From the NCBI GenBank assembly GCA_017470985.1, contig JAFUXA010000026.1:14922-78921 (forward strand): a stretch of DNA of 64,000 nucleotides. The letters are read 5' to 3'. Within the stretch, counting starts at the first letter, position 1. Every line of letters begins with the position of its first letter. Origin of the DNA: Lachnospiraceae bacterium (GTDB taxonomy: Bacteria; Bacillota; Clostridia; Lachnospirales; Lachnospiraceae). Shown piece after piece: positions 29,971 through 59,948 of this stretch. The position numbers and the translations under genes were made by a program. The notes beneath the pieces are model-generated. The model saw only the letters and a list, made by a program, of their open reading frames with translations. It did not search any database and was not told the DNA's origin.

Positions 29971-30033
29971 TTTGTCAGACTCCTATACCCGCTCATGAAA
30001 ACAAACAGTTTCAAGAAAAGAGAGGTAAAGAAA

Positions 30034-41472: not shown

Positions 41473-42522
41473 ATGATGACAGTTGATGAACTTGTGGCCA
41501 AGGCAAAACAGGATGGAGCATCAGATATACATCTTATTGCGGGCCTTCCACCGAAATATAGAGTGAGTGGTGGTTTGGAAAATATGTCTGAGGAGATAAT
41601 CTCAGCTGATGATGCGCTGGCTTATGCCAGAACTTTGGCCGGTGAAGTGGGATTTACCACATTGATGAAAGTGGGAGAGCTGGATTCAGCAGGTACATTT
41701 GCCGGCAACCGTTGCCGTATTCACATTTTCAAACAGCAGGGAATTCCATCTGTAGCACTTAGATTGCTCAGTGAGAATATTCCTGATTTGGCAACACTTG
41801 GATTGCCACCAGCAGTTTTGGATTTGGTGAATTTACACAAGGGAATCGTCCTTGTAACAGGAGAGACTGGTTCTGGTAAATCAACAACTCTTGCTGCTTT
41901 GATTGACAAGATTAATCATACTTACAAGAGTCATATAGTTACATTGGAAGATCCGGTTGAGTATATTTACAAACCTGATTTATGTGCTATCAATCAGCGA
42001 GAAGTTGGTAAAGATACAGCAAGCTTCTCAGAGGGACTTAGAGCATCTCTTCGTGAGGATCCAAATGTTATTCTAATTGGTGAAATGCGTGATAAAGATA
42101 CAATTGAGACAGCTATTACAGCTGCTGAGACCGGACATCTGGTATTTGGTACACTTCATACAGGAAGCGCTGCTGATTCCATTGACAGAATGGTACAGGT
42201 ATTCCCTGATGGAGCACAGAATCAGATTCGTCTGCAGTTATCTACTTGTTTGCAGGCAGTAATTACTCAGCAACTTTTACCAAAGGTAGGTGGAGGCAGA
42301 GCTCTTGGTGCAGAATTCATGCCAGTTACAGATGCGATTAGAAATCTTATTCGTTCAGGTAATACTCCTCAGATTGCCAATGCAGTTGCTACATCTGCAG
42401 CAATCGGAGGACAGACAATGGATCAGGCTTTGGTACAGCTTGTGAAGAAGGGACTTATCACTCGCGACACTGCCAAGTCATATGCCAAGGATCCTACATA
42501 TATTAACAAATATGCATTGTAA
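41473..42522 (+). CDS. pilT: Type IV pilus retraction ATPase PilT
   Basis: 349 aa. GETGSGKSTT, ILIGEMRD, GHLVFGTLHT. Confidence 0.88.
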   Translation: MMTVDELVAKAKQDGASDIHLIAGLPPKYRVSGGLENMSEEIISADDALAYARTLAGEVGFTTLMKVGELDSAGTFAGNRCRIHIFKQQGIPSVALRLLSENIPDLATLGLPPAVLDLVNLHKGIVLVTGETGSGKSTTLAALIDKINHTYKSHIVTLEDPVEYIYKPDLCAINQREVGKDTASFSEGLRASLREDPNVILIGEMRDKDTIETAITAAETGHLVFGTLHTGSAADSIDRMVQVFPDGAQNQIRLQLSTCLQAVITQQLLPKVGGGRALGAEFMPVTDAIRNLIRSGNTPQIANAVATSAAIGGQTMDQALVQLVKKGLITRDTAKSYAKDPTYINKYAL

Positions 42523-42556: not shown

Positions 42557-43771
42557 GTGATTACATATAAGTATTCCGCAATTTCCAAAGACGGTGCCAA
42601 GGTCAAGGGCGTTATTGAAGGTTATAACGAGATGGATGCCATTGACAGAATCAAAGCCGATTGTGATGTGGTTTTGAAAGTCACACCTATGGAGGAGGGC
42701 AGAGAGAGTTTCCTCACAATGGAGATTGGTGGCACTAAATTAAATACTAAAGAGTTCACGGTTATGTGTTCTCAATTTGCAATTATATTGAAGTCTGGAA
42801 TACCAATTGCAAGAGCGGTAAATCTGGTTTATGAGAAGACTACTGACAAAGCTTTGAAGAAATTATTGAAAAAGGTGGCAACAGATGTGGAAGGTGGTCG
42901 TTCATTGGCAGCCAGCTTCGAGGAAAATGGAGCCAACCTTCTGCCGGCTACATTTATTGAATCCATAAGAGCTGGTGAGGAATCAGGAAATCTGGATACT
43001 GCTTTTGAATCTATGTATGAACATTTTGACAAGCAGACCAAGATTGGTGCCAAGGTAAAGGGTGCCCTGATGTATCCGGCCTTTGTATTAGTGTTGGGAA
43101 TTGTAGTTATCATCGTTATGATGGTAAAGGTTATTCCTACATTTATCGAGATATTTGACGGATTGGATGCAGAACTTCCAGCTATTACAGTATCCCTTAT
43201 TGTATTATCGAACTTCTTCCAGAAATACTGGGGATTGCTACTGGGAATTGCAATAGTGGGATTTCTGGCATACAAGATTTATGGAAATACAGAGGAAGGT
43301 CGAATCAAGATTGCCAAGGCGGGTTTATCAATTCCTGTTTTGGGAAATATTCAGACACTCAATGCTGCATCTCAATTTGCCAACACACTGGTAATTATGA
43401 TTGAGGCGGGACTTCCACTTACCAAGGCTGTAAGTATAACTGCCAAGGCTATGGACAACTATTATATTTCTCAGGAAGTGGGCAAGATGACCGGACAGAT
43501 TGAGGAAGGTCGAACTTTAGGAGATGCCATGAGAGACAGTGGTTGCATGCCGGATATTCTGACAGATATGACTGCAGTTGGTGAGGAATCAGGTGAGTTG
43601 TCAGAGACACTGTCAACTATTGCAGAATATTATGATGCAGAACTTGCTACAGCCATAAGCGAAGCATTGGCGAAGCTTGAACCTGCTATCTTGGTTGTAA
43701 TTGCAGCCTTTGCAGGATATGTAGTAATCGCAATTTACATTGCAATGTTTAGCATGTATGGAGCGATGTAA
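42557..43771 (+). CDS. pilC: Type IV pilus platform protein PilC (GspF family)
   Basis: 404 aa. Two GspF-type repeats, three TM segments. GTG start with AAAGGAGAG SD. Confidence 0.88.
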   Translation: MITYKYSAISKDGAKVKGVIEGYNEMDAIDRIKADCDVVLKVTPMEEGRESFLTMEIGGTKLNTKEFTVMCSQFAIILKSGIPIARAVNLVYEKTTDKALKKLLKKVATDVEGGRSLAASFEENGANLLPATFIESIRAGEESGNLDTAFESMYEHFDKQTKIGAKVKGALMYPAFVLVLGIVVIIVMMVKVIPTFIEIFDGLDAELPAITVSLIVLSNFFQKYWGLLLGIAIVGFLAYKIYGNTEEGRIKIAKAGLSIPVLGNIQTLNAASQFANTLVIMIEAGLPLTKAVSITAKAMDNYYISQEVGKMTGQIEEGRTLGDAMRDSGCMPDILTDMTAVGEESGELSETLSTIAEYYDAELATAISEALAKLEPAILVVIAAFAGYVVIAIYIAMFSMYGAM

Positions 43772-43772
43772 G

Positions 43773-44561
43773 ATGGTACTATTTGAATTGAGTGAATTAG
43801 AGCCTTGGATGGTTGCATACTTTGTGGTTTTGGCTTTTATTTTGGGAAATGTATTTGGATCATTTCTCAATTGTGCAGCATGGCGAATAGCTCATAATAT
43901 GAGCTTCATGCGAGGACATAGCATATGTCCTAAGTGTAAGCACGAACTGGGAGCCAGGGATTTAATACCTATAGTAAGTTATGTGACATCCAGAGGCAGA
44001 TGCAGATATTGTAAGGAACCTATTTCCATTAGATATCCTGTAACAGAGATAATATTTGGTCTGGTAAGTGTGGCAATGCTTGTCAGTGACGGAGTGTCAC
44101 TATTGTATTTACGGGATTTCGTATTTGCAAGTTGCTTGTTTTGCTTGAGTCTGGTGGATTTGGAAATATTTGAAATCCCAAATGGGACACTTATTGTGGC
44201 AATTATAGCCTGGGTGGTAAGCGTGCCATTTATAAATGCCGATATTACTTATATATTAATGCATGTTGGTGCGGCTTTTGGATTTGCCGTTGGTTTTTTA
44301 GTTCTATCACTGGTGATGGACAAGATTCTAGGCAGAGATTCATTGGGCGGAGGAGATATCAAACTATTCTTTGTAGTTGGACTTTATCTGGGAGCTGTGG
44401 CTGGTATGTTTACAGTGATTTTGGCAGCCATTGTAGCCTTGGGATTTGCAAGAGGAAGAGAACGAATTCCATTTGGACCATTTATATCAATAGCAGCATG
44501 GGTAATGCTTATATTTGGTAATCCTGTGGTTCAGTGGTATTTAGATATGATACAAATATAA
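43773..44561 (+). CDS. pilD: Prepilin peptidase (A24 family) PilD
   Basis: Zn-binding CPKC...CRYC N-domain. The catalytic Asp context GGGDIKLF. Polytopic. Confidence 0.88.
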   Translation: MVLFELSELEPWMVAYFVVLAFILGNVFGSFLNCAAWRIAHNMSFMRGHSICPKCKHELGARDLIPIVSYVTSRGRCRYCKEPISIRYPVTEIIFGLVSVAMLVSDGVSLLYLRDFVFASCLFCLSLVDLEIFEIPNGTLIVAIIAWVVSVPFINADITYILMHVGAAFGFAVGFLVLSLVMDKILGRDSLGGGDIKLFFVVGLYLGAVAGMFTVILAAIVALGFARGRERIPFGPFISIAAWVMLIFGNPVVQWYLDMIQI

Positions 44562-44576: not shown

Positions 44577-45560
44577 ATGGCAAATGTATTAGGAATTGAT
44601 ATCGGACATGAACGCTTGAAAATGGTCCTGGTATCAGGAGGAAAAATCAAAAAAACAGTGGTTGTTGAGACACCGGAGAATTTATTGAAGGACGGAGTGA
44701 TTGTATCCCAGGAGACAATGGGAGAGTTCATTCGGGAGACAATGAAGGAAAATGGTATCTCAGCTTCCAAGGCGGCTATTGTACTAAATGGTGAGCGCGT
44801 GTATGTGAGAAATGTTACCATGCCACTCATGAATGCAGATCAGTTGCTATATAATCTACCTTATGAATTCCGTGATTATATCACAGAAGAATTGAAGGAT
44901 TATATGTTTGATTATGCAATGCGTTCTGTTGATGAAGAGGAAAATACAATGGATGTATTGGCAGCAGCAGTACCAAAGACACTTATAGATGATGTGAGAG
45001 TGGTGCTTCGCAAGGCTGGCTTGAAGCTGGTGAAGGCTGCACCTATTTTATCATCATATAGAGCACTCATTAGAGATTATGAGAAGACACATCCAACCAG
45101 AGATTATCTCCTATTGAATCTGGGATATAGATCAATTCGTGTGGATGTGTTCCATGGTCAGGAGTATCTGGCAACACATGTTCTCGACATTGGTTTGAGA
45201 AATGTTGATACTGTATTGGCTGAGTCCATGGGGGTTGATGAGCATATAGCTCATACATATTTGATCACAAATCACAAGGATTGTCAGAATAGTATGGAAT
45301 GCAAGAATGCATTTACCAATATATCAGTTGAATTGATGCGTACTATGAACTTCTTGAGATATAGTATGCAGGACAATGACTTGGATGAGATATGGGTATG
45401 CGGCGGTGGTGCCAATATTCCAAACTTACGAGATGCAATTGCTGAACATTTGGAAGCTCCGGTTTATTCTGCTTGGGAGAAGTTCTGCGGAGCTGATCAC
45501 AGCAGACAGCAGGAAGGGGATTCAATACTACAGACAGTTGGAATTTTGAAAGATTTGTAG
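44577..45560 (+). CDS. pilM: Type IV pilus assembly protein PilM (actin-like ATPase fold)
   Basis: VLGIDIGHERLKMV N-terminus, 327 aa. Sits between pilD and two bitopic coiled-coil proteins. Confidence 0.75.
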   Translation: MANVLGIDIGHERLKMVLVSGGKIKKTVVVETPENLLKDGVIVSQETMGEFIRETMKENGISASKAAIVLNGERVYVRNVTMPLMNADQLLYNLPYEFRDYITEELKDYMFDYAMRSVDEEENTMDVLAAAVPKTLIDDVRVVLRKAGLKLVKAAPILSSYRALIRDYEKTHPTRDYLLLNLGYRSIRVDVFHGQEYLATHVLDIGLRNVDTVLAESMGVDEHIAHTYLITNHKDCQNSMECKNAFTNISVELMRTMNFLRYSMQDNDLDEIWVCGGGANIPNLRDAIAEHLEAPVYSAWEKFCGADHSRQQEGDSILQTVGILKDL

Positions 45561-45561: not shown

Positions 45562-46236
45562 ATGGTTGTTATGGAAAAGATAATTAGAAGAAAAGAAGAT
45601 ATTTTAAACAAAATCAAACCGAGCTATCCATCTAAGGACAAAATCAATTTCGCTGAGATTGATATAACTCCAATGAAGATAGAGGTTGTGGCTCCAGCTA
45701 TAGTGGCGATTATTATTGTGGCTTGTCTCTTGTCGAAATTCCTGGTTGTGGATCGATTGATTGAATATAACAAGCAGGCGGCTGAGGTTGCATCTATGGA
45801 AAGCGAGCTTCAGGCAGCTTATGACAAGATTGATTCATACAGCGATATGGAAGAGAAGTATGCTCACTATACATATTCTGGCATGACACCTGAAGAGATG
45901 GCGCTCCAGGATAGAGTGGCAGTTGTGGAACTGATTAATAAATATATCTTGACCAAGGCTGAGGTTGGAGCATGGACTATCACAGGAAATGAGGTGAATA
46001 TTCCAATTACAGGAGTATCATTTCAGGAGGTTGGCGCTATTGCAGCTGAACTTGAAAAGGATGATATGGTAGATCATTGTGAAGTAGTTGCGGCTACAAC
46101 TAATGACAATGGCAAGGTATATAATTCTAGTTCATCAAGCATCACAGTTGTAAATGGTGTGGGTGGAGCAACCGCTCAGGTTACTATTTATCTCAAAGAT
46201 GTTGGAGAAGAAACTACAGAAAGTGAGGGCGAGTAA
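45562..46236 (+). CDS. pilN: PilN-like bitopic protein (TM + coiled coil)
   Basis: A single TM (VVAPAIVAIIIVACLLSKFLVV) followed by a coiled coil. Position after pilM. The start may be ATG 45571. Confidence 0.55.
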   Translation: MVVMEKIIRRKEDILNKIKPSYPSKDKINFAEIDITPMKIEVVAPAIVAIIIVACLLSKFLVVDRLIEYNKQAAEVASMESELQAAYDKIDSYSDMEEKYAHYTYSGMTPEEMALQDRVAVVELINKYILTKAEVGAWTITGNEVNIPITGVSFQEVGAIAAELEKDDMVDHCEVVAATTNDNGKVYNSSSSSITVVNGVGGATAQVTIYLKDVGEETTESEGE

Positions 46237-46860
46237 ATGAAATTTTTGAGTAGAGATTTTACACAAAAAGAGAGAATATTACTGATAGTCCTTGCAGTGC
46301 TTCTGTTGGTAGTATTTTATTATTATGTAGTTGATATACCACTTAGAGACCAGCAGGCAGAGCTTGAGTCCCGCAAATCTTCTGTGGAGGCTGAGCTTAC
46401 AATAGCCAATGCCAAGGTGGAAGAGTACGAGAAGATGGCCAAAGATCTCAAGAAAATGGACGGCGATGCATCCAAGATGGAGAGCTACAACAACCGTACC
46501 AATGAAATCAATTTCTTGAATGATTTGTTGGCAAATACCTCTTCTTACTCAATTAACTTCGAGCCGGTAACTGTTGATAATAATCAGGTTCGTAGAGAGT
46601 TTCAGTTGGCTTATACTTGCGGCAGCTATAATGAGGCAATTACTATTTTAGAGAAGTTATCTAAGTGCAAATACAGATGCTTGATCAGTGATGTAGGCTG
46701 CGCTTCGGTAAATACCAATACAGCAATTACCGGTGCGGTAAATGTAACTGTAAATGCCACATTCTATGAGACTCTTGTTGGCAAGACTACAGATGCAGGT
46801 TTGCCAGAAATTGAGGAACAAGTAACTGACGAAGCCTTGGATGAAGCCGCACAGCAGTAG
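46237..46860 (+). CDS. pilO: PilO-like bitopic protein (TM + coiled coil)
   Basis: A single TM (ILLIVLAVLLLVVFYYYVV), then a coiled coil, then an alpha/beta domain. Abuts the pilN-like gene with no intergenic gap (pilN stop codon ends at 46236, ATG at 46237). Confidence 0.55.
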   Translation: MKFLSRDFTQKERILLIVLAVLLLVVFYYYVVDIPLRDQQAELESRKSSVEAELTIANAKVEEYEKMAKDLKKMDGDASKMESYNNRTNEINFLNDLLANTSSYSINFEPVTVDNNQVRREFQLAYTCGSYNEAITILEKLSKCKYRCLISDVGCASVNTNTAITGAVNVTVNATFYETLVGKTTDAGLPEIEEQVTDEALDEAAQQ

Positions 46861-47853: not shown

Positions 47854-48038
47854 ATACAGTGGTTTTTCTTGATTTTTATAATAATGTCTGCATCTATGCG
47901 TCAACCTCTGCTTGATATTCGGTGGTTTTAGAAGAAACAATTCATTTTATCCGTATTTGCGGGCGAGGTTTGACTCAGAGGGCGGATATAATTGATGAAA
48001 TGAGTGATTTTATCTGCACCTATAGGCTATTGACTGCT

Positions 48039-48122
48039 TGAACGGGGATTTGCGTAGTATTTGGTAATAAATGAACGGGGATTTGCGTAGTATTTGGCGA
48101 TGAATGAACGGGGATTTGCGTA
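48039..48122 (+). repeat. Three tandem 33-bp repeats (ATGAACGGGGATTTGCGTAGTATTTGG...) upstream of the NERD gene
   Basis: Units start at 48039, 48071 and 48104. The core GAACGGGGATTTGCGTA is identical in all three. Confidence 0.9.
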
Positions 48123-48148
48123 ATTAATTGATAAATGAGGAGAAAATT

Positions 48149-49099
48149 ATGGGGATTTTAAGTAAGAATGAAGTAGTTATTTTGAAAAAATCAACTGCAT
48201 CAAAGGAATATTTGGCTAAGTTGCAGGCACTGCGTCAAAATGTATCTGATGAGGATTCCCTTGCAGATGAGTTAGATAAAGAGATAGCAATTGTGAATGC
48301 CGGAATATATGGCGAAGAAAGTGTACTATTTGAACTGCAGAATAGCGATATGGATTTGGTAGTTATACAAGATTTGTTTTTGAAAACAAAGGATGGTCGA
48401 ACTGCACAGATAGATTTCTTTGTTATAACACCATATGCAAATGTTATTATTGAATGTAAAAATTTATTTGGAAATATTACTATAAATGAAAAGGGCGATT
48501 TTGTAAGAACATTTAATTACGGGAAGAGATATTATAAGTCGGGGATATATAGCCCTATAACGCAAAACGAAAGACATTTGTCTGTTTATAAAGAATGCAG
48601 ACAAGAAGATAAAAATATACTGATTCGTGCAGCGTTAGAAAAGGGTATATCATCTTACACCAAGAGCGTGGTGGTATTGGCAAATTCAGGGACTGTTGTA
48701 CATGATAAATATGCTCCAAAAGAAATTAAGAATCAAGTAATCAGATGCGATCGTTTGATTCGATATTTGAAGTCTATTAAGACGGATGTGAAGTCTTCGA
48801 AGAAAGAGATGCTTGCATTGGGAGAGAAGGTGTTAGTTCTTGATGTGAAAGAGAGAACGGATTACTTAAAGAAATATCAAGAATTGTTTGATGAATATTT
48901 GGTAAATAATAATAGTGATATTGCTGATAGCGAGACAACAGTTGAGAGCGAAAATGATACTTGCCCATGGTGCGGAAATAAGCTGGTACTTAGAACAGCG
49001 ACAAAAGGAAAGAATGCAGGTAATAAGTTCTATGGTTGCAGTACTTTTCCTAAATGTAGATTTATAAGAAATATAAAGGGGATTGACTGTGAGAAATAA
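48149..49099 (+). CDS. NERD-domain protein with C-terminal topoisomerase-type C4 zinc ribbon
   Basis: NERD-like core (IDFFVITPYANVIIECKN). C-terminal CPWCGNKLVLR...FYGCSTFPKCRF. AGGAG SD before ATG 48149. Confidence 0.7.
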   Translation: MGILSKNEVVILKKSTASKEYLAKLQALRQNVSDEDSLADELDKEIAIVNAGIYGEESVLFELQNSDMDLVVIQDLFLKTKDGRTAQIDFFVITPYANVIIECKNLFGNITINEKGDFVRTFNYGKRYYKSGIYSPITQNERHLSVYKECRQEDKNILIRAALEKGISSYTKSVVVLANSGTVVHDKYAPKEIKNQVIRCDRLIRYLKSIKTDVKSSKKEMLALGEKVLVLDVKERTDYLKKYQELFDEYLVNNNSDIADSETTVESENDTCPWCGNKLVLRTATKGKNAGNKFYGCSTFPKCRFIRNIKGIDCEK

Positions 49100-49344: not shown

Positions 49345-49737
49345 TTATGGAGTAGTAGAAACAGTTGCTCCACCAGAAAGTGACCAAGTCCAATCGTCAC
49401 CACTCTTGGTTCCTGTGACAGTTACTTTTTGTCCTTTTGTAATAGTAATGTCTCCAGAACTCCAAGGGCCGAGGTTTTCTGGTGTGATTTTATCAATAGC
49501 ACCGGTACTCTTTGTTGTGGCTGCAGTTTGCTTTGTTATTGTCGCTGCATCACTTGTTATAGCTTCAGCGGCTGCTTCAGCATATGCTGCACGGATATTT
49601 GCAACATCTGTGGCTTCTCTTGCTTTCTCTAACTGTGTTGTAAAAATTGGAATAGCGATTGCTACCAATACGGCGATGATTGCTACAACTATAAGCAATT
49701 CAGCCATTGTAAATCCTTTTCTGTTTAATTTCTTCAT
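49345..49737 (-). CDS. pilA: Type IV major pilin (PilA-like, 130 aa)
   Basis: MKKLNRKG|FTMAELLIVVAIIAVLVAIAIPIF has Gly-1, Phe+1, Glu+5 and a hydrophobic alpha-1 helix. AAAGGAGGAATG SD. Confidence 0.88.
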   Translation of the reverse strand: MKKLNRKGFTMAELLIVVAIIAVLVAIAIPIFTTQLEKAREATDVANIRAAYAEAAAEAITSDAATITKQTAATTKSTGAIDKITPENLGPWSSGDITITKGQKVTVTGTKSGDDWTWSLSGGATVSTTP

Positions 49738-50014: not shown

Positions 50015-50043
50015 TAATTACAGATAGATTGGGGAGTTTGCAA

Positions 50044-53000
50044 ATGAATACAAGAAGTTTCATTAACAAACATAATAGAGACAGACTCACAAAGGGTTAC
50101 ACAATGGCAGAAGTTCTGACGGTTGTTGCAATCATGGGAATTCTGGCAGCGGTGGCTTTTGTGGGTGTTTTTGCATTAAGAAGAAATATGAAACAGACTC
50201 AGGCTGACAAGAATGCAGAGATTATTTTCGAGGCAGCTCAGCGTCAAATGGTTTCTGTTGTAGCTTTCGATCCAGATTCTACAATTACTCTGAAGAATAG
50301 AGCCAATGGCATTTATGCGCCAGCGGGAATTCCTGATGTTAATCTAGATGATTACAATATGATCCCTGCCGATCCTGTAACACCTGAAACACCTGGAACA
50401 GGCAGAAATTCCATTCAAACCCTTCTCTTAGAAGGTCAGGTTGCAGATGATCTCTATGCAGACGGATGGGTAGTGGAGTATGACAATAATAGTCTACAGG
50501 TTAAATCAGTATTTTACTTCGAGGATGGAGAATATAGTGATTTCTATAATGATGTAAATACTAATCAAACTCTGCGCCAAAATCGTGCGAAGCGTCTCAA
50601 TTATCAGAAAGAAAATAAGAAGGTAGTAGGATACTTTGATGGTTCTACTTCATCTATGAGTGACAACAAGCTCAAGGTATACGGAGTTGCCAAGATTGAA
50701 AATGGTGAGGAGCTGAAGGCCAAGGTTGCCGTATGTGCTACTGGTTCAGAAGCCAAGGACAAGGAATATCTCCTGACTATTACAACAACAGGAGTGAATT
50801 CAGGTGCCAAGGCAGTACAGCAGATTAAGCTTACAAATCTTATGATGGATCCTTGGACCAAGATGCGCACATCCAGCGTGACAATTGTCCTTGATAGCTT
50901 GAAGAACAACATGCAGTTCAAGGATACATATGGTTCTATCGCTGATGATGGAATTGGATTCCTGACAGACTCAACTAATGGTTTCATTACCATAAATGGT
51001 TTTGGACAGATTCTAAATACTGATGGAACTATAACAGATAGAAATTTCATTCCTGGTGAGGATGTAGAAATTTCTGTTTCTGCTGAAACAACTGACCATG
51101 CATTTACAGATTCTATGTCAGAGGTGAAGGTTACTACCAATTCATTGTACTATTCTAAGTCCAATGACCATGGCACTTATACAGCAGATGTGAAATGTGG
51201 TAGACATTTACAGAATTTAGATGTGGCTACATCAGGACTTAACTTGCAGGATTTCCTTACAGCTATGAAGTCAGAGAACTTCACAGAGATGAAGGCTGTA
51301 CAGGTTGATGATATTGATTTCACAGGTGATGAGTGGAAGGATACATACGAGACAAATGGTAGTGTTCGTAAATTCACTCCTATAATAAATAGATACTTGG
51401 AATCATACTCTGGCGGCAGCAAAGTCGGAGAGTACTACATTAAACGACTGATTGTGGATACAGCAGGCCGAACCAATGCAGGTCATTTCTCAGAATTCAG
51501 AGGAGACAAGATAGAATATGTAACTCTTATTGATGAACAGATCAAAGGCTCATCTTCTACGGCAAATGGATCTATAGGTGGATTGGTTGGTAGCATTCCA
51601 GATGGCATCGGCAAGGTAAAGATAAATGGTTGCCAGATGTATATGAGCGCTGATACATACAATCAGGGAATGGACGCAGCAAAATCTGATTGGATGAATG
51701 GCGCCAGAAATATTGGTGGCTTAATTGGAGAGAGTGGCAGAGAACTGGAGATTTCTCTATCTTCTGCTTCAACAGTAATCACAGGCGCGACTCAATATGC
51801 AGGCGGTCTTGTGGGAAATGCGGCCAAGGTAAGCCTGGAGAAATCTTATGCAGACTGCTACTTAGGCGGAAGCAATATCGGTGGCTTGATAGGAAATTGT
51901 GCAGACACATCTACAATCAACGGATCATTTAGTGCAGGATTTGTAATTGATCAGGCATTAGCAGCAGGTGGCAAGATTGCAGGTATGACCACATCTTCTG
52001 TAGCTTCAGTTACTGATTCATATACAGTATTTAGCTTTGGTGGAAAGCTTGATTATCCAGGCGCAGTAACATTTTACACAACAGTTGCTGGAACTGCGGA
52101 GCAGTCAGCTCTATATTATGTGCCAGCAAGCTTTGACATCCCTCAGAGCAACAAGATCGGTTCAGACAGAAGTGCCAGCGCAATGAAGGATTCAACCAAG
52201 ACTGGATTCGGCGCGGGAATATTTGCCTTCCGTACAGACACATCTTACGGATTCAATTCGGTTCCATATAAATTGACTGATGGTACAGCATCTCTGGTGG
52301 GATATGCTTATCCAATGATTATTTTGGAAAATGGTAAGACTCTCAACCAGTATGGTGACTGGCATGATGCAATCAGTAGACTGACAGTTAGATTCCTCTA
52401 CAGCGACCAGGCTTTGGAACTTAAGGATGCAGGAGAAATCACATTGGCGGATCCACTTATTCCTACTAATGATGGTAAATATTATTTCACAGAAGATTAT
52501 GCCAATGCTATAGTAGCGCACCAGGAGATTCAGGAATATACCAATGCATTTATCCCACAGCAGAACTATCAGCTGGCAGGTCGTGAGAAGGCGATTCTGT
52601 ACTGGGAGTTCACATACGAGGGACAGACATATTACTATGTGCCAGATAGCGCAGACAGTTATTTCCCAACAGACGGAGGTAGAAAATATCGCGGCAAGAT
52701 ATATCTGGCAAGCGATTGCTTAAATAATATTATGGCGGGAAATGTAGCTCCTTGGGAGGGCGTGACTCCACGCAATATTAATAATCCTTTGGAATCAGTG
52801 ACACAAAGTATTGATGTGTATGCCAGATTCTATATGACAGATACGATTCAGTATGTGCGCATGCACTACCGTATCTATAATGACAATACCAGAACTACAT
52901 CTATTGGTAGATACATCGGTAGAGCAGTTGTTGTGAAGACAGGTAATAAGTACACGATTACCACGGAAGCACATTCTAACGTAGGTGGATATCATTTCTT

Positions 53001-56000
53001 CGGATGGGCTACTACAGAAAATGGTTGGGATGCTGGATTGAATTCCACAATTCTGCCATCAGAAATTGCTCAGGAACAGGCACAGACTCTCACAATTACA
53101 GCAGATGTAATTGAGCGAGGAGATGTATATGCTATCTATGAGAAGATTGATAATTATCCGGTAAATGTAGAATTCTGTGCATATGATTCCAACAATGATG
53201 GATGGGGTTCTTCTATATATCAGCCTCAGTACAATACATATTCTACTGAGGACTGGGTTGGCGGTTCAAATACCAGACGCATCTATCTGCCAAAGACTGC
53301 TGATGTAGTAGGTTATGATTTGCATAAATATAATAATACCAATGACTATAAGGCTCTATTTTTTGCAGGGGATGGCACAAGGGATGCATCCAAAGATACT
53401 GATATAAAATACGACAGCTCACAGTATATATCTTTAGATGCGGCACTTGCTGCGGGAGCTGCGTATGTGGAAATTGACATTACAGCACCTGGCTCATATG
53501 TAGTGACTTATAGAGGTCAGGGTGCGAGATATTATAGAGTTGATAAATATTATCTCAACACAGTTAGTGGTGGAAATGCTTATACATATCATGATACTCA
53601 GCAGAAAGAGCGAACGGGAACAAGATATGATGATGGTATAGTAGGTAGCAATATTTCCAACGACAAACTGTTGCCGGATGACGATGGCTTTGAATTGGAT
53701 CACTATGGCGCATCTCATACACCTCTTATTGGAAATGTAGGCGATAATGAGACTTATGTATGTCAGGCTTACTATAGAAGAAAACAGTTTGAGATGTTCT
53801 ATGATTTAAATGGTGGAACATACAATGACGGCTCAATCAAAGGCTATCATACATTTGAGGAAGTACCTTATGGTATGCCTTTGGCGAATATAGGCTTCAT
53901 TAACCAGACTACAACAGGCGCTGTTCAACTTAACATGTCTGGTTGTGAATTCGGCGGATGGGTTTATTACAAGTATGCTGAGGTAATGGCTCAGGGTTCT
54001 TATGCTGGATTGACTGCATACACTGCCAATACTATGCCAAAGGAAGCTATGATTGCTGTAGCTCAGTGGCATATAGGACCGAATACTCCTGTACGCTTAG
54101 AGATTTATCGACAGGATCGTGAAAATGTTCTTGCTGGAACCAGCTTTAACGATTTGGCTGTGCCAAATGAGAACAAGACATATCTGCTACAGAAGTCCAT
54201 GGATATTACAGCTGCAGTAGACTACAATGCCAATAATAATACCAAGATTCAGAGGAAAGAAGCACTGCTTAATGCAGCAAACTATAATACATTAAAGAAT
54301 TTGATTATCAATTCTTATGGAACACGAATTAATAATGCTGATTCCGAGATGTATCGTCTGTTAAATGGTAAGGAGACACAGTACTACTTTACAGATGCAG
54401 TGACAACCAATCCATTGTTGCAGTGGGCTACTATTAAACCTGAAATTGTAAATGGTGAAGTGGTATTGAGACTGTATTATGACCGCAAGATTATAACTGC
54501 TACTTTGGATTATGGTTCTTCATCAAATTCTAATAATATGAACCAGTATGCAGAGCGCGATTTGACACAGGCAGTTACAAATATGGCTACAGATCCAAGG
54601 ATTACTGTGGAGTCATATCAGAGTGGTTATGGATATAACAGAGTGACTCGCTACAGAATATTGATGAAGGCTTTGTATGGAGCTCATTTTGATGAACCAC
54701 CATATGTATGGACAGATGAATTGTGGTTCAGTTATGGAAATACAGGTAAGAGACATTTAGAGAGCTTCATTGATGAAGTTGGAAATATTGGCGATTCTTC
54801 TAGCGCCAATGCAAGGAATGTATGGACATTTACATATAGTCAGACCAATGGAAATAATAACTGTAAAGTATTCCTTGAGACGATTGACGGAAGTGGAACG
54901 GCGGTTCAAATTGGTGGTACAGGAACTGCATATTCGTTTGATACAGCAAATTCAAATTATACATATAAGCAGTCCAACAATGTAAACAATACATTTAATG
55001 CTGGTACTTACCATGGATATACATTGTGGGCTAAACAGTTAAATGGAGGTGCATTAACATCTGCGACAGATGGAACAGGTTATGATATTGGTGATGCCAA
55101 TAATTTCTACTTCATCAGAAAGTCCGGATTGAACCTTTTCCTTAACCAGGCTCATGATGCAAGTACACATACGGACTTTACTCCATATGTGGGACGCTAC
55201 AAGGATGTATTTATTCTCCCAGATGAATCGCAGGTAGAGCATCCAACTGATCCGACTAAGTACACCTTTGGCGGATGGTATGCTACTTCTGATTTCTCTG
55301 GAAATCCGATCACAGCATTTACCATGGATGACCATGATGCACAGGTATTTGCTAAGTGGATACCAAAGGATATTACACTTACATATCATCCTGAGTATCC
55401 GGATGTTAATGATAATTCGGCAATATTTACGGAGACTGCTAAATTTAATCGTGAGGTTGGAGCGCTTCATCAGTTTATAACTGCGGAAAACGGCAGAATC
55501 CTCGTAGATTCTACCGGAACATATTATAGATATACACCTGATGGAGAAGACAGACCTAGCACCTATCGTTTCGACGGATGGTGGCGCAAGGATTCTGTGA
55601 CAGGTAAATACACAGTACAGGTTACAGGAAACGAAGTATTATACGATGATAATACAGACGTATATGCTAGATGGACTCAGATTGAGGGATATGCTTATCT
55701 GAAGATTAGATGTGTACAGGTTGATAATACATCAATTGTTCATGAGGAAATGTCTGCTCACAAGATATTGCTTGGCAGTCCTCAGTACATTTACGCACCA
55801 CTTGTAAATGCTGCAACATGGAATCAGCCAGGAGAGGATTGGAGTGGATATTATCCAACTCAGACTCGTGTGACTCAGACATTCTATGGAGAGGAACCTG
55901 AGATAGTATTCTACTACTCAAAGGGAACTGCTTTGAATTACACGGTGAACTACTTCGTTACATTTAAGCCTTATGGCACAACTGGTGGTTCTAATGAGGA

Positions 56001-56499
56001 GATTACCCTCAAGACTCAGGAATACATCCAGTCAGTTAATTCAGCAGTAGTAGTTCCACCATTATTTGACGGATATTATCTGACAAATGATGTGACAAGT
56101 GTGCCGGTTGCAAATAACGAGAGCGGCAAGATTATAGACTTCTACTATGAGCCGGATTTGCGAACCATTCAGATGGTTGCCAAGACTCTCTACGGAAGTC
56201 ACCAGAGCTTCCCGGAGATAGTTGTGGATGAGATGAAGTCAATATTTGACCTGTATCCAACAGCTTTGGCTGGCTACGAATTAGTACCGATGTACAAGCT
56301 ATATGATCTGCAGGGAAATGAAATCACACCGGATTACATACTTGCATCTGAGAAGGATTCTTATATGCAGAATCTGCCAAATGGCACATACAGAGCCCTT
56401 GGTAGAGTATATCTACAGAAGGACGGCGTAAATCTCATGGTATTGTGGGATAGCCCGAATTATGTAAACTTCATGATGGTAAATGATGACGGAGAGTAA
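50044..56499 (+). CDS. Giant (2,151-aa) modular type IV pilin-like protein: prepilin N-terminus + GLUG-like repeats + Listeria-Bacteroides-type repeats + MucBP-like modules
   Basis: MNTRSFINKHNRDRLTKG|YTMAEVLTVVAIMGILAAVAFVGVF (Gly-1, Glu+5). GGGGAG SD. Uninterrupted 6.5-kb ORF. Repeat motifs are listed in the findings. Confidence 0.8.
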   Translation: MNTRSFINKHNRDRLTKGYTMAEVLTVVAIMGILAAVAFVGVFALRRNMKQTQADKNAEIIFEAAQRQMVSVVAFDPDSTITLKNRANGIYAPAGIPDVNLDDYNMIPADPVTPETPGTGRNSIQTLLLEGQVADDLYADGWVVEYDNNSLQVKSVFYFEDGEYSDFYNDVNTNQTLRQNRAKRLNYQKENKKVVGYFDGSTSSMSDNKLKVYGVAKIENGEELKAKVAVCATGSEAKDKEYLLTITTTGVNSGAKAVQQIKLTNLMMDPWTKMRTSSVTIVLDSLKNNMQFKDTYGSIADDGIGFLTDSTNGFITINGFGQILNTDGTITDRNFIPGEDVEISVSAETTDHAFTDSMSEVKVTTNSLYYSKSNDHGTYTADVKCGRHLQNLDVATSGLNLQDFLTAMKSENFTEMKAVQVDDIDFTGDEWKDTYETNGSVRKFTPIINRYLESYSGGSKVGEYYIKRLIVDTAGRTNAGHFSEFRGDKIEYVTLIDEQIKGSSSTANGSIGGLVGSIPDGIGKVKINGCQMYMSADTYNQGMDAAKSDWMNGARNIGGLIGESGRELEISLSSASTVITGATQYAGGLVGNAAKVSLEKSYADCYLGGSNIGGLIGNCADTSTINGSFSAGFVIDQALAAGGKIAGMTTSSVASVTDSYTVFSFGGKLDYPGAVTFYTTVAGTAEQSALYYVPASFDIPQSNKIGSDRSASAMKDSTKTGFGAGIFAFRTDTSYGFNSVPYKLTDGTASLVGYAYPMIILENGKTLNQYGDWHDAISRLTVRFLYSDQALELKDAGEITLADPLIPTNDGKYYFTEDYANAIVAHQEIQEYTNAFIPQQNYQLAGREKAILYWEFTYEGQTYYYVPDSADSYFPTDGGRKYRGKIYLASDCLNNIMAGNVAPWEGVTPRNINNPLESVTQSIDVYARFYMTDTIQYVRMHYRIYNDNTRTTSIGRYIGRAVVVKTGNKYTITTEAHSNVGGYHFFGWATTENGWDAGLNSTILPSEIAQEQAQTLTITADVIERGDVYAIYEKIDNYPVNVEFCAYDSNNDGWGSSIYQPQYNTYSTEDWVGGSNTRRIYLPKTADVVGYDLHKYNNTNDYKALFFAGDGTRDASKDTDIKYDSSQYISLDAALAAGAAYVEIDITAPGSYVVTYRGQGARYYRVDKYYLNTVSGGNAYTYHDTQQKERTGTRYDDGIVGSNISNDKLLPDDDGFELDHYGASHTPLIGNVGDNETYVCQAYYRRKQFEMFYDLNGGTYNDGSIKGYHTFEEVPYGMPLANIGFINQTTTGAVQLNMSGCEFGGWVYYKYAEVMAQGSYAGLTAYTANTMPKEAMIAVAQWHIGPNTPVRLEIYRQDRENVLAGTSFNDLAVPNENKTYLLQKSMDITAAVDYNANNNTKIQRKEALLNAANYNTLKNLIINSYGTRINNADSEMYRLLNGKETQYYFTDAVTTNPLLQWATIKPEIVNGEVVLRLYYDRKIITATLDYGSSSNSNNMNQYAERDLTQAVTNMATDPRITVESYQSGYGYNRVTRYRILMKALYGAHFDEPPYVWTDELWFSYGNTGKRHLESFIDEVGNIGDSSSANARNVWTFTYSQTNGNNNCKVFLETIDGSGTAVQIGGTGTAYSFDTANSNYTYKQSNNVNNTFNAGTYHGYTLWAKQLNGGALTSATDGTGYDIGDANNFYFIRKSGLNLFLNQAHDASTHTDFTPYVGRYKDVFILPDESQVEHPTDPTKYTFGGWYATSDFSGNPITAFTMDDHDAQVFAKWIPKDITLTYHPEYPDVNDNSAIFTETAKFNREVGALHQFITAENGRILVDSTGTYYRYTPDGEDRPSTYRFDGWWRKDSVTGKYTVQVTGNEVLYDDNTDVYARWTQIEGYAYLKIRCVQVDNTSIVHEEMSAHKILLGSPQYIYAPLVNAATWNQPGEDWSGYYPTQTRVTQTFYGEEPEIVFYYSKGTALNYTVNYFVTFKPYGTTGGSNEEITLKTQEYIQSVNSAVVVPPLFDGYYLTNDVTSVPVANNESGKIIDFYYEPDLRTIQMVAKTLYGSHQSFPEIVVDEMKSIFDLYPTALAGYELVPMYKLYDLQGNEITPDYILASEKDSYMQNLPNGTYRALGRVYLQKDGVNLMVLWDSPNYVNFMMVNDDGE

Positions 56500-56504: not shown

Positions 56505-57266
56505 ATGTATAAACAGATTAAGAGAAAACTTCATAGTAGAGATGGAGCATCCATATCTTTTGCCTTCTTTGCCTTTATTGTGGCAGCAGTTGTCTCGCTG
56601 GTAATAATTGCAGCAGCTCTGTCCAATGCAGTGAAGCTTCGTCAGGAGAGGGCAAATGAACAGGCTTATCTGATAGCTGAATCAATTGCTTATGCATTGG
56701 CTGATCAGATGGTATCTACAAGCAATGAGACTGCACCTGCAGGAAGTGCCAAGGAGTATACCAGCAGATATATCAGAGTGGCAGAGGTGGCTGCTCCGGG
56801 AAATACTACAGTGGTATCAGCTACAGCTGCTACAGAGGGTATTGATGTATTGGCAGAACCATTTAAGACTACTGCAGAGAATTTGTGCAAGACCAGATAT
56901 GAAGCTGTGAAAGCTGGAACTGCAGGACTTCCGGTAAATGCTACAGCTTCTACGGATATTAATATTCAGGTGTCCAATATTGTAGGTGCTTCAGGAGATG
57001 AGTTATCAGATTCGGTAGCAGATACAATTAACAGTAGTGACACCAAGATATCTTGTTATATGCCGGAGGTAGAATTAATATCCACCGGTGGAAGTGTAAA
57101 CTTCGATGTGGCTGACTATTATGACATGGAATATCTCATAGAGGTTCCTATCTCAGCCGGCAAGACATATAAGTGCAGACTTCATATGGATGCTGCTATA
57201 AAAAACAATGGCAGTGCAACTTATGTATATTGGCCTACTTATAATCTGTTAAAGGGGGCTGAGTAA
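56505..57266 (+). CDS. Pilus-operon protein with an N-terminal hydrophobic anchor but no Glu+5 (PilX/ComGG-like role possible)
   Basis: MYKQIKRKLHSRDGASISFAFFAFIVAAVVSLVIIAAAL... It sits 5 nt after the giant pilin stop. No recognisable domains. Confidence 0.45.
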   Translation: MYKQIKRKLHSRDGASISFAFFAFIVAAVVSLVIIAAALSNAVKLRQERANEQAYLIAESIAYALADQMVSTSNETAPAGSAKEYTSRYIRVAEVAAPGNTTVVSATAATEGIDVLAEPFKTTAENLCKTRYEAVKAGTAGLPVNATASTDINIQVSNIVGASGDELSDSVADTINSSDTKISCYMPEVELISTGGSVNFDVADYYDMEYLIEVPISAGKTYKCRLHMDAAIKNNGSATYVYWPTYNLLKGAE

Positions 57267-57267: not shown

Positions 57268-57684
57268 ATGATTTTATATATGAGAGAAATATTTTCAAAA
57301 ATAAATAGTAATGTTGCAAATGAAAAAACTCTGTTAAAGGCAAATAGTCACGGCGTAAATATGCAAGCTGATGTGAGCCACAAGCTTCGTAATAAATCAG
57401 GAGAAACCTTGGTGGAGACATTGGTGGCTCTTATAATAACCACTCTGGCTCTGATGATGTTGCCGGGAGCAGTAGTGGCAGCAGCTCGTGTAAATGCACG
57501 AATTGGTGATCAGGTAATATATATGGAAAGAACCAAGGATGCGGCAAATGGTACCAATGTGGGAACATGCGATATTACATTTTCCACATCAGATATGAAA
57601 AAGTCTACTGTATCAGGGTTGAAGGTTACCCGTTTTGGAAATGATAAGACTGGGCTATATGAGATAGGTTTATTACAGGAGTAA
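57268..57684 (+). CDS. Minor pilin-like protein (class III signal ...NKSG|ETLVETLVALIITTLALMML)
   Basis: Gly-1 and Glu+5 followed by a hydrophobic helix. The start is uncertain: ATG 57268 is coupled to the upstream stop with a GGGGG SD and gives a 46-aa leader. ATG 57361 gives a 14-aa leader but has no SD. Confidence 0.6.
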   Translation: MILYMREIFSKINSNVANEKTLLKANSHGVNMQADVSHKLRNKSGETLVETLVALIITTLALMMLPGAVVAAARVNARIGDQVIYMERTKDAANGTNVGTCDITFSTSDMKKSTVSGLKVTRFGNDKTGLYEIGLLQE

Positions 57685-57692: not shown

Positions 57693-59948
57693 ATGAAGAA
57701 GTGCGATAGAAAGTTAAAACAGAATAGCGGCTTTACAATATCAGAGCTTCTGATAGCTACTCTGATTTTGCTTCTGACTTCTGCTATGCTTGTGACCTGT
57801 ATTCGTTTGGGTTTGAAACAGCTATATCAGCAGACAGAAGAGTCTGAGGCACAGATGCTATGTACTATGTTATCCACTGCAGTGCAGGATGAGCTGACTT
57901 ATGCAGCTAATCCTCAGATGCAGGATACTTCCGCAGGTAAGCTTCTATTATTTGACAGAGTTGGTGCACCTAACAAGGTTGGATTCTATATGGCATCCAA
58001 TATTGGCAGTGATGAGCCGGATTATATAGCAGTTACAGATGATGCTGATTTTGCCAAAGTGAATCTGGGACAGATTAGTCTGGCTGCAATTGATTCAAGT
58101 AATAATATAGTAAGCACATATGGTCTGGTTTCCACTGGAGCATATAATATAGAAAATTCCAAGAACGGTAGCTTGCAGGCTGGCATGCAACTGAAGGAAC
58201 ATGGCAGTGGTTACGAAGTTAGAATTAGTATATACAATAGTTCTGGTTCAGATGAGGCCATTGCAACCAAGAATTTCTATGTGGGGCGAGTTTCAGGAGA
58301 TGTAAGCGCTAACATGGATGTGGATGACAGTGGAGATAATATCACTTATAATCTCACCTTTGATCCAGCAGGGGGAAGCTTCGATGATAACACAACCGCA
58401 CCGAAATCTTATACTGGTATAACAAATGGAAGTATATATGAGGTGCCAAATGTAACCAGAGATAATTATGACCTGGTTGGATGGAATGGTGATGATGGAA
58501 GTACTGTTCCTGCTGCCGGCAGCGTGACAGTAAGTCGTGATGTTACTTACACAGCTCAGTGGACTGGCAAGAATTATACAGCCAGATTCTATCAGGATGA
58601 AGCCAAGACCATTGATGTAGGAGCTATATCAGCGGTCTATGGCAGAATTGTGGGAGGTACAGTTGAAGGCCAGGAAATTGACTGGATTGGTAAGCGGGGA
58701 GTTGATGAATACAACTTCAATAGACTCAATAACAAGAATGGATATATATTTGATGGTTGGGTAGATGAAGCTGGTAATATCTATTATATAGAAGCTGGAG
58801 ATACTTGGACATTTGTAGGAGACCAGGATTTTGTAGCTCATTATTCTCCTGTGAAATATACAGCCAACTTCTACAGAGGATATGATTCTCAGGGAAATCC
58901 AACGGGCTTAGTAGATACAATGCAGGTGGAGTATGATGAGACAATTAATCTACCATCAGCTCCGGAGCCTCTTGTGGCAGGATATACATTCCAGGGTTGG
59001 GAATATGAGAGAGCAGTTGATGACAAGGCTGTAATTCCAGTTGGAAATACTACATTTAAATACGAATACAGCAGAAATATAGATTTCGTAGCAACATGGG
59101 ATTATTACACACTGACTTTTTATAATGGTAATAACATAGTTGGAGAGGCACTGTTCAATCCAAATACCTGGGGATTTGAGTATACGGATAATATAGAGCA
59201 GTCTGAATTGAGCCATAGTGACGCCAATAATTGGACATTCAATGGTTGGTATAGTGATCCTGGCAATGATGTGAGAGATTTTGATCAAAATGGTGATCCT
59301 ACAGCACAAAATACTATTATTGCAGCTTTTATAAATGGTCAGAGCAATGTAAATCTCTATGCCGGATATGTAAATACCAATGCAATGTATGTGAAGACTG
59401 ATTCCATAAATAAAGTTGGACAGAGATTTCTGATTGTAGGTGGTGACACTGTTGGTAATAATCAGAAGGCTATGACTCATGATGGCGGAGATGTGGAGAC
59501 TGCCAATGTAAATATTAAGGGTGATAATAATCTAAAGTATGTGGAATATAATGATTCAGATAAATCCAAAGAGTGGTATACATCCTCGGGTAATTCTTCT
59601 GGATATTATATTAGAAAGTATGAAGCTGCCTGGGAACAGGATCCACTTGATTGGTTTAGATACAAGAATAGATATAAATATCTGAATCTGGCAGGAGGAT
59701 TATTGTCTCATGCACCTACAATAACTACTGATAATAGTGCTACATCGGCTGATTGTAGAACATGGACTTATAGCAATAATGAATTGCATGGATATTATGA
59801 TACAAACCTTGGTAGAAATTGGAATATATATTACGATTCTGGCTCGAAATCATTTGAAGATAGAGAAGCATCCGGCAACGGAAATATCCATATTTATGAG
59901 TTGACTGATGCCAATACAGTGGTTTCATTCAATGGATATAATTATTAA
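57693..59948 (+). CDS. Large (751-aa) modular pilin-like protein with four Listeria-Bacteroides-type repeats
   Basis: MKKCDRKLKQNSG|FTISELLIATLILLLTSAMLV (Gly-1, Phe+1, Glu+5). The repeats are YDLVGW..YTAQW, YIFDGW..FVAHY, YTFQGW..FVATW and WTFNGW..LYAGY (about nt 58338-59372). Confidence 0.8.
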   Translation: MKKCDRKLKQNSGFTISELLIATLILLLTSAMLVTCIRLGLKQLYQQTEESEAQMLCTMLSTAVQDELTYAANPQMQDTSAGKLLLFDRVGAPNKVGFYMASNIGSDEPDYIAVTDDADFAKVNLGQISLAAIDSSNNIVSTYGLVSTGAYNIENSKNGSLQAGMQLKEHGSGYEVRISIYNSSGSDEAIATKNFYVGRVSGDVSANMDVDDSGDNITYNLTFDPAGGSFDDNTTAPKSYTGITNGSIYEVPNVTRDNYDLVGWNGDDGSTVPAAGSVTVSRDVTYTAQWTGKNYTARFYQDEAKTIDVGAISAVYGRIVGGTVEGQEIDWIGKRGVDEYNFNRLNNKNGYIFDGWVDEAGNIYYIEAGDTWTFVGDQDFVAHYSPVKYTANFYRGYDSQGNPTGLVDTMQVEYDETINLPSAPEPLVAGYTFQGWEYERAVDDKAVIPVGNTTFKYEYSRNIDFVATWDYYTLTFYNGNNIVGEALFNPNTWGFEYTDNIEQSELSHSDANNWTFNGWYSDPGNDVRDFDQNGDPTAQNTIIAAFINGQSNVNLYAGYVNTNAMYVKTDSINKVGQRFLIVGGDTVGNNQKAMTHDGGDVETANVNIKGDNNLKYVEYNDSDKSKEWYTSSGNSSGYYIRKYEAAWEQDPLDWFRYKNRYKYLNLAGGLLSHAPTITTDNSATSADCRTWTYSNNELHGYYDTNLGRNWNIYYDSGSKSFEDREASGNGNIHIYELTDANTVVSFNGYNY

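Follow-up and report, generated by a model that had tools for sequence, protein, structure and literature searches.

The window analysed here is a 64,000-nucleotide (nt) stretch of contig JAFUXA010000026.1 (positions 14,922 to 78,921, forward strand) from the Lachnospiraceae bacterium assembly GCA_017470985.1. It carries a gene at 50044..56499 (+) that encodes a protein of 2,151 amino acids (aa) with a class III (prepilin) signal. This protein, referred to below as the giant pilin, is probably a giant modular minor pilin that serves a retractile, type IVa-like pilus; its host is a monoderm member of the Lachnospiraceae from the rumen. The protein is unremarkable within its family, which is large, so far undescribed and most likely places adhesive modules near the pilus tip. 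An earlier note on this DNA had proposed a giant type IV pilin with adhesin modules, and its core idea, that the protein is a type IV pilin-type subunit, is supported by the sequence evidence set out below.

Hardly any work has been done on type IV pili in the commensal Clostridia of gut and rumen, and the subject touches on attachment to fibre, mucus and partner cells. Pilins 15 to 40 times the usual size, encoded beside pilus genes, would represent a general solution to attachment, combining a constant stalk with a species-specific adhesive array.

A giant prepilin and its family

The open reading frame (ORF) runs for 2,151 codons without interruption. A Shine-Dalgarno sequence, GGGGAG (50031..50036, +), can be read directly 7 nt before the ATG at 50044. 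An alternative in-frame GTG at 50005 would add 13 residues; the ATG is favoured because the orthologs P0001 and P0014 begin MNTRS. The initiator methionine lies upstream of the G/YTMAE motif (a slash marks the predicted cleavage site here and below), and the leader is kept in orthologs. Fourteen orthologs from independent assemblies (2,155-2,289 aa, 41-95% identity) are collinear with the giant pilin over its full length. Tandem Repeats Finder reports a single 27-nt tandem repeat within the ORF, and self-BLAST finds no internal repeats in the protein. The giant ORF is thus confirmed as genuine, and the collapse of repeats that the earlier note had considered a possible source of error can be set aside.

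The protein opens with MNTRSFINKHNRDRLTKG/YTMAEVLTVVAIMGILAAVAFVGVFAL, matching the quotation in that note, and the class III signal is as it was read there. An 18-residue basic leader (aa 1-18, 50044..50097, +) ends in Gly-1, Glu lies at +5, and cleavage by the prepilin peptidase PilD is predicted between G18 and Y19. A class III signal peptide comprises a short hydrophilic leader ending in Gly or Ala and then a stretch of about 21 residues, mostly hydrophobic, in which position +5 is Glu, and each of these elements is present (MNTRSFINKHNRDRLTKG/YTMAEVLTVVAIMGILAAVAFVG). The N-terminal hydrophobic segment is the sole one in the protein, and the predicted mature form has 2,133 residues. G18 is near-invariant among 55 homologs and invariant in 33 loci, while Gly-1 and Glu5 (E23) are together invariant in 33 of 33 family loci. 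Conservation of Glu5 is expected for assembly into a filament, beyond mere cleavage. The role of this residue in filament assembly is covered by a review of type IV filaments (PMC10191384). A scan of the full 64 kb for a strict class III motif gives the N-termini of only four ORFs, each belonging to the pilus locus, plus one internal position that is a false positive.

Profile searches also detect the pilin N-terminus. The NCBIfam prepilin domain TIGR02532 scores 20.3 bits on the giant pilin against a cut-off of 16.3. Of 15 orthologs, 13 match the Pfam model N_methyl (PF07963) at E ≤ 0.05 (best 8.1e-5), and the family member P0138 scores 30.7 bits with it. A family profile of aa 1-223, built from 33 loci, picks out 21 type IV pilins or pseudopilins of solved structure (E < 0.02, best 6.7e-12). 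The alignment is confined to the alpha1 region; in those matches that were printed or are full-length, the first residue of the mature pilin pairs with the one that follows the conserved Gly. A phmmer search of PDB sequences with the full giant pilin gave weak alpha1 matches only.

An AlphaFold2 (AF2) model of aa 1-800, based on a 55-sequence alignment (predicted local distance difference test, pLDDT, 85.5; predicted template modelling score 0.79), contains a 55-residue alpha1 helix at 21-75. It is accompanied by strands at 104-109, 141-147, 153-159 and 195-199 and by short helices up to about aa 200, with block-mean pLDDT values of about 62-89 over aa 21-200. Together with the invariant E23 and the profile matches to solved pilins, the model points to a pilin module at aa 19 to ~205 (50098..50658, +), made up of an alpha1 helix with Glu5 and a predicted small alpha/beta head.

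The family is defined by the first ~775 residues, which comprise the pilin module, a beta-rich region and a GLUG-type region. With residues 1-800 as query, a full HMMER scan of 1.84 billion representative proteins returned 1,345 matches at E ≤ 1e-3, 563 clusters at 1e-10 and 106 at 1e-30. Targets are up to 5,147 aa long; where the best stretch of a match includes the N-terminus of the query, it mostly starts no more than ~20 residues into the target. Beyond the 14 orthologs, 51 proteins (1,320-3,189 aa) match chiefly the first ~36% of the query. Of the 206 collected proteins, 150 are 2,000 aa or longer and 17 are 3,000 aa or longer; the representatives P0075, P0182 and P0138 reach 4,598, 4,973 and 5,147 aa, the last being the longest. 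The earlier note had regarded a protein of more than 2,000 aa as an extreme case. The size holds, but the protein is no isolated extreme, being an average-sized member of a family that exceeds 5,000 aa.

A genome scan used the invariant motif G-R-H-L-Q-N-L-[DE], and 80 loci were retained from it. The median complete ORF has 2,394 aa, and two ORFs, in L044 and L069, run beyond 4,098 aa at the edge of the locus. As the reading of the giant protein as a pilin implied, homologs carry class III signals: the strict signal is present in 74 of the 80 loci, and a strict prepilin pattern is passed by 184 of the 206 collected proteins, the failures being mostly mis-called starts or fragments. An LPXTG anchor is found in none of 189 long family members.

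By the same motif scan, relatives occur in at least 109 species genomes, nearly all of them Clostridia, including Lachnospiraceae, Oscillospiraceae, Blautia, Agathobacter, Oscillibacter and Dysosmobacter. The closest genome match is a Lachnospiraceae metagenome-assembled genome (MAG) from water-deer rumen, with 94% identity over residues 1-800. Cultured carriers are Oscillibacter valericigenes An907, Dysosmobacter segnis BX15, Hominenteromicrobium mulieris CLA-AA-H250 and Blautia isolates. Three loci (L036, L063 and L072) lie in bins labelled Akkermansia muciniphila, Coriobacteriaceae and Duodenibacillus, respectively, and these contigs are probably mis-binned Clostridia. The giant N-terminus of L036 is closely like that of the Agathobacter rectalis locus L032.

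The conserved stalk and the C-terminal array

The pilin module is followed by a first beta-rich region (aa 211-383, 50674..51192, +), which is conserved across the family, is modelled by AF2 as strands over aa 211-383 and ends in NSL (aa 366-368). The GLUG-type region comes next (aa 385 to ~700, 51196..52143, +). It opens with the invariant G-R-H-L-Q-N-L-D at aa 386-393, contains GGL motifs and further invariant residues, and is modelled as short regular strands with pLDDT above 90, an arrangement that can be read as a beta-helix. The conserved part of the protein closes with Y-G-D-W at 770-773. The top Foldseek rows for the aa 1-800 model, all of them non-significant, are beta-sandwiches of glycoside hydrolase family 2 (GH2), with TM-scores of about 0.1, and the snake adenovirus LH3 protein, a beta-helix.

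The earlier note had named its module groups from strings read by eye. A spot check of 15 of these strings, with at least one per module group, found all of them. The GLUG-type strings IGGLVGS (aa 511) and GGKIAGM (aa 642) map to the part of the protein where they had been placed, and the remaining ones are visible in the translation. The GLUG label itself stands by way of a homolog, P0016, whose region aligned to the giant pilin matches Glug (PF07581) with 34.2 bits in three stretches, but not in the giant pilin, which scores 12.9 bits (E 0.15), under the gathering threshold (GA) of 20.5. One of 15 orthologs matches this model, and many homologs carry a precomputed PF07581 annotation. P0138 has further GLUG and M26_N-like signals at aa ~2,440 and ~4,130, which suggests repeated GLUG-type units in that protein.

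The last 1,372 residues (aa 780-2151, 52381..56496, +) form a lineage-specific array, with homologs solely in the 14 orthologs, that appears to consist of beta-rich, adhesin-type modules. An AF2 model of aa 952-2151 is mostly beta (pLDDT 74.6). Foldseek matches it to YwfG (4.7e-5), to the sortase-pilus tip adhesin PitA (1.3e-4) and to Bacillus anthracis TIE (5.4e-4), with weaker matches to SHIRT (0.015) and an InlB B-repeat (0.07). These adhesin matches and the Flg_new-like units described below support an adhesin-type protein, in which the N-terminal stalk is conserved and the C-terminus is limited to the 14 orthologs.

The earlier note had counted at least four Listeria-Bacteroides (Flg_new)-type repeats in the array, and the eight strings quoted for them all map where it had placed them, at aa 984-1873. 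Two related Flg_new-like units are upheld, at aa 1728-1771 and 1776-1879 (55225..55680, +). Scanned alone, aa 1728-1771 matches Flg_new (PF09479) at 7.1e-05 with 23.3 bits (GA 27); the model is found in 12 of 15 orthologs (best 1.1e-7), and hhalign relates the two units with a probability of 82%. Among eleven putative modules compared in this way, only these two are related. The other two units, near aa 984 and 1301, are doubtful. They have no Pfam match, and hhalign assigns them probabilities of 22-40% to the Flg_new repeats of a neighbouring gene, a comparison that is insensitive, as those repeats barely find each other.

The MucBP label was not upheld. Both strings read as MucBP-type ends lie where expected, at aa 1953 and 2030. 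The MucBP model (PF06458) gives no match at E ≤ 10 to aa 1880-1960 or 1960-2040, nor to any ortholog, and hhalign finds no mutual detection between these two segments. The resemblance is at the level of fold, through the match of the aa 952-2151 model to YwfG, which carries MucBP-type domains; the position of this match within the model is unlocalised. Sub-threshold Pfam hints to Jacalin (0.0071, aa 1960-2040), a galactose-binding-like domain (0.0057, aa 2040-2151) and SCPU (0.033, aa 935-1040) were not relied on. A motif search of the giant pilin confirmed the earlier statement that it has no LPXTG sorting motif, a second hydrophobic segment is likewise absent, and a sortase substrate was rejected for lack of LPXTG.

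Pilus genes, the minor-pilin cassette and alternative readings

The assembly machinery for a pilin (PilD, PilB, PilT, PilC, PilM and PilO) is all encoded within 10 kb upstream of the giant gene. A PilB-type extension ATPase with an N-terminal MshEN domain, predicted to bind cyclic di-GMP (c-di-GMP), lies at 39754..41469 (+; T2SSE 8e-130, MshEN 5.7e-17). It also matches the c-di-GMP motif model NF053729 (64.9 bits, cut-off 38) and type_IV_pilB (8e-172, under the equivalog cut-off). The MshEN-type domain suggests that piliation responds to c-di-GMP. No riboswitch for this molecule turned up in the window, and an Rfam scan showed no riboswitch near the pilin genes. The following genes encode a PilT-family retraction ATPase (41473..42522, +; TIGR01420 410.5 bits, cut-off 319.1) and a PilC/GspF platform protein (42557..43771, +; T2SSF 5.9e-57 in two stretches, with matches to GspF and PilC models). 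Next come the A24 prepilin peptidase PilD with its N-terminal domain (43773..44561, +; A24_N_bact 1.1e-28, Peptidase_A24 1.4e-10) and PilM (44577..45560, +; PilM_2 1.2e-21, TIGR01175 7.2e-34). A PilN-like protein (45562..46236, +) has no profile match and is assigned by position, a gene of the same size lying between pilM and pilO in L001 and L002; BLAST finds relatives of it in many family loci. A PilO/GspM-like protein (46237..46860, +; T2SSM 4.7e-08) completes the series.

The candidate major pilin, of 130 aa (MKKLNRKG/FTMAELLIVVAII), is encoded divergently from the giant gene at 49345..49737 (-) and scores 30.6 bits with N_methyl and 30.2 bits with TIGR02532. The earlier note had identified both this pilin and the A24 peptidase as neighbours, and the profile matches agree. 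Together, the candidate major pilin and the predicted PilT indicate a real, retractile pilus. A terminator-like hairpin lies by the major pilin gene (49307-49280); in a promoter and terminator scan, matches were no more frequent than in shuffled sequence. Between pilO and the major pilin gene (47170-49099) are an SfsA-family gene and a gene with NERD and topoisomerase-type zinc-ribbon domains, an arrangement repeated in the 95%-identical contig L001. Rfam has only two matches in the window, a tRNA gene (638-721) and a T-box leader (29688-29946, 96.7 bits) that overlaps the ATG of the ORF at 29881-31083 by 66 nt.

The association with pilus genes extends to the family. A pilus-machinery gene lies within 10 kb of the match in 63 of the 80 loci, and in 37 of the 43 that have at least 8 kb of upstream sequence. 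In the locus of a 29%-identical homolog, the order is pilB, pilC, pilin, pilD, pilM, pilN, pilO, the giant gene and three small genes.

The giant gene is itself the first of a tight four-gene cassette with intergenic gaps of 5, 1 and 8 nt. The second gene (56505..57266, +) encodes a 253-aa minor-pilin-like protein with a class-III-like leader and no Glu5 (…HSRDG/ASISFAFF…), a candidate tip cap for which no profile match was found. The third (57268..57684, +) encodes a small minor pilin (…NKSG/ETLVETLVAL…; N_methyl 22 bits, GA 21.2) that likely starts at the Met at 57361 (107 aa). The fourth (57693..59948, +) encodes a second modular pilin of 751 aa (…QNSG/FTISELLIATL…) with Flg_new repeats (Flg_new 1.8e-13, List_Bact_rpt 32.4 bits). 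Among family loci, a Glu5-less gene of ~180-290 aa directly follows the giant gene in 41, a G/ETLxE pilin of 84-139 aa is third in 39, and a G/FTLxEL pilin of 161-221 aa is fourth in 36. The family profile of the fourth partner matches pilins, among them Streptococcus sanguinis PilE1 (5e-5 over 130 residues), which shows this partner to be a pilin and gives no assignment to H, I, J or K. Profiles of the Glu5-less and small partners gave nothing useful against the PDB. Four adjacent genes, the second without Glu5, in ~40 loci make up a pattern like that of HIJK, with homology to GspH/I/J/K undetected.

Module grafting also enlarges other pilins of the cassette, as the fourth gene here, with 751 aa, illustrates. 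In L027 (14108-16795) the G/ETLxE pilin, normally ~100 aa, has ~896 aa with Flg_new (1.8e-10) and Flg_new_2 repeats, and a C-terminal stretch (CITEGTMITLADGS…) that by eye has a Hint/intein-type look. The main pilus locus of Clostridium perfringens strain 13 has four genes after pilO (CPE2280, CPE2279, pilA3 and CPE2277; PMC6958937). These may be a small-protein counterpart of the cassette.

The sequence motif and how well it is conserved, the synteny and the predicted folds lead us to infer cleavage, incorporation into a filament, a location at the tip and adhesion. The prepilin would enter the membrane by way of Sec and be retained there by its alpha1N segment. PilD would cleave after Gly18, and N-methylation of Tyr19 is possible because PilD has the A24 N-terminal domain, which a 2023 review links to pilin N-methylation. 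The giant pilin and its three downstream partners (the 253-aa Glu5-less cap candidate, the ~107-aa pilin and the 751-aa Flg_new pilin) would form a complex that starts pilus assembly and so ends at the pilus tip. Minor-pilin tip complexes are capped by a Glu5-less subunit, and pilus assembly begins with them (PMC10191384). The giant pilin is more likely a member of such a complex than its cap, because it has a conserved Glu+5, and a pilin without Glu5 is the product of the next gene. Since it keeps Glu5, it would sit below the cap, with the stalk and the variable array projecting outwards. The 130-aa major pilin would polymerise beneath the complex, driven by PilB. The N-terminal ~775 residues would act as a stalk presenting the lineage-specific adhesin array of ~1,370 residues, with plant particles, glycans and other cells as candidate substrates, and retraction by PilT would draw the cell to the substrate.

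Several points weigh against this proposal. N_methyl scores 19.1 bits on the giant pilin, under its GA of 21.2. When the whole aa 1-800 model was compared with the PDB by Foldseek, nothing matched at E ≤ 0.001 and the 50 listed rows contained no pilin, so the case for a pilin head comes down to the order of its secondary-structure elements. For the three partner proteins, no homology to GspH/I/J/K or PilH/I/J/K was detected, and the analogy with a tip complex draws on size, gene order and the missing Glu5. In six of the 43 loci with long upstream flanks, no machinery gene was seen nearby. A subunit of ~230 kDa would have to cross the peptidoglycan. Finally, the cleavage, piliation and binding of the giant pilin are predictions from sequence.

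Some of these points speak for the main rival, in which the pilin module displays the protein at the cell surface and no long filament is formed. The sole role of the class III signal and alpha1N would then be to anchor the protein in the membrane, or to seat it on a short pseudopilus that drives it across the wall, comparable to the piston of a type II secretion system or to archaeal binding proteins with class III signals, and the protein would be a cell-surface rather than a pilus-tip adhesin. Class III signals are known on non-filament proteins in archaea. The giant pilin is also very large for a filament subunit, and both the loci that lack nearby machinery genes and the N-terminal model that lacks a significant match to a solved pilin head fit surface display. 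Such a protein would, however, hardly be expected to keep an invariant Glu5 across its family, to be constantly linked to a Glu5-less cap candidate and two small pilins, or to be encoded beside a major pilin and a PilT retraction ATPase, and we consider this reading rather unlikely.

A pilus-borne or secreted enzyme, whether an M26 IgA1-protease-like peptidase or a glycan-degrading enzyme, is very unlikely. A 2021 survey read the combination of pilin and GLUG as a peptidase (PMC8179133), and GLUG is accompanied by weak Peptidase_M26_N signals in the aligned region of P0016 (0.055) and in P0138 (6.7e-4). These matches span the last ~45 positions of the profile, beside the GLUG region and outside the catalytic domain, and the GH2 enzymes at the top of the Foldseek rows are non-significant matches with the low TM-scores given above. 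Pfam shows no M26 catalytic domain in the giant pilin or its orthologs, and neither Pfam nor NCBIfam matches a catalytic domain anywhere in the giant pilin. HExxH is absent from it and present in two of 189 long family members. An M26 peptidase was rejected because HExxH is absent, and the published peptidase reading of pilin with GLUG is probably wrong; the sequence favours a non-catalytic GLUG region over a protease.

That the ORF is an assembly artefact or a decaying pseudogene, chimeric or collapsed and not expressed as a single protein, is scarcely credible: the window probably comes from a metagenome assembly and its closest genome match is a MAG, but this reading was rejected on the strength of the 14 collinear orthologs, which come from independent samples and share conserved residues along the whole length, while no DNA tandem repeats beyond a single one of 27 nt and no internal protein repeats were found and L001 and L005 hold the same gene in the same context. 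The enzyme and artefact readings are both unlikely.

The interpretation of the protein as a giant modular minor pilin may extend to the family. We propose, tentatively, that giant pilins of 2,000-5,000 residues are the standard tip adhesin of type IVa pili (T4aP) across gut and rumen Clostridia (Lachnospiraceae, Oscillospiraceae, Blautia, Agathobacter and others), with a conserved stalk, a freely exchangeable C-terminal array and a four-pilin cassette in which any subunit can be enlarged. If this is true, pilus machinery mounts subunits of 0.2-0.55 MDa and carries them through the Gram-positive wall, and the variable arrays are major determinants of the substrate or partner of each species. 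It would also pose the question of how a subunit of 230-550 kDa is exported, retained by a single helix, primed for assembly and passed through peptidoglycan.

Comparison with known systems

Modular pilins are already known. They are defined by a pilin module joined to domains not specific to pilus biology, which in the giant pilin are the GLUG-type region, the Flg_new-like units and the adhesin-type folds. A survey found more than 1,200 such proteins in 264 architectures (Raynaud et al. 2021, PMC8179133). Its Dataset S1 lists the domain combinations seen here, namely pilin with GLUG (IPR012902-IPR011493, 6 proteins; GLUG read as M26 peptidase) and pilin with two Listeria-Bacteroides repeats (IPR012902-IPR013378 x2, 9 proteins). 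Dataset S1 gives architectures only, without protein sizes, the stalk, the four-gene cassette or the family size of 563 clusters. The survey's 'most extreme case', by number of grafted domains, is an 860-residue protein with 12 copies of one motif (PMC8179133). Searches for literature on GLUG with pilins, on giant or large pilins, and on pili of Eubacterium rectale or Lachnospiraceae found no description of the giant-pilin family. Thus, the size class of 2,000-5,000 residues, the conserved stalk and the cassette are undescribed in the searchable literature.

The closest characterised systems are the modular minor pilins PilB (von Willebrand factor A, vWA, module) and PilC (lectin module) of S. 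sanguinis (Raynaud et al. 2021, PMC8179133; Shahin et al. 2023, PMC9934059). These belong to a monoderm T4aP, have class III signals with Glu5, carry modules C-terminal of the pilin module, are encoded with other minor pilins and are proposed to be tip-exposed adhesins, as we propose for the giant pilin. In contrast, PilB has 454 processed residues and one module, whereas the giant pilin has 2,133 mature residues, a stalk of ~570 residues and a multi-module array. Neither a vWA nor a lectin profile matches the giant pilin, and its partner set, unlike PilA/B/C, consists of four genes, one of which is Glu5-less.

CofB and TcpB of type IVb pili, GspK and ComZ also combine an N-terminal pilin module with extra beta-rich domains, and have a tip or initiation role. 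They are much shorter, at a few hundred residues, and none of their extra domains is related to those of the giant pilin. Gram-positive wall-anchored adhesins with GLUG, Listeria-Bacteroides (InlB B-repeat), MucBP or SHIRT modules, such as Lactococcus YwfG, InlB and SGO_0707, share beta-rich modules at the level of fold, together with the Flg_new sequence signal. However, they have Sec signals and LPXTG, GW or S-layer anchoring, whereas the giant pilin has a class III signal and no LPXTG.

The cassette as a whole resembles the PilHIJK and GspHIJK tip complexes, in which four minor pilins, one without Glu5, are co-encoded beside the assembly genes; its partners differ in having no detected sequence homology to H, I, J or K. 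In diderm T4aP, subunits have a secretin to pass, which the giant pilin does not. Diderm T4aP also present PilY1/PilC, for whose beta-propeller no Pfam match was found in the giant pilin or its orthologs. As proposed for the giant pilin, PilY1/PilC is a large, tip-presented adhesin with a conserved 'carrier' and a variable 'effector' part. PilY1/PilC is a non-pilin docked on the tip complex, whereas in the system proposed here the giant adhesin would itself be a pilin.

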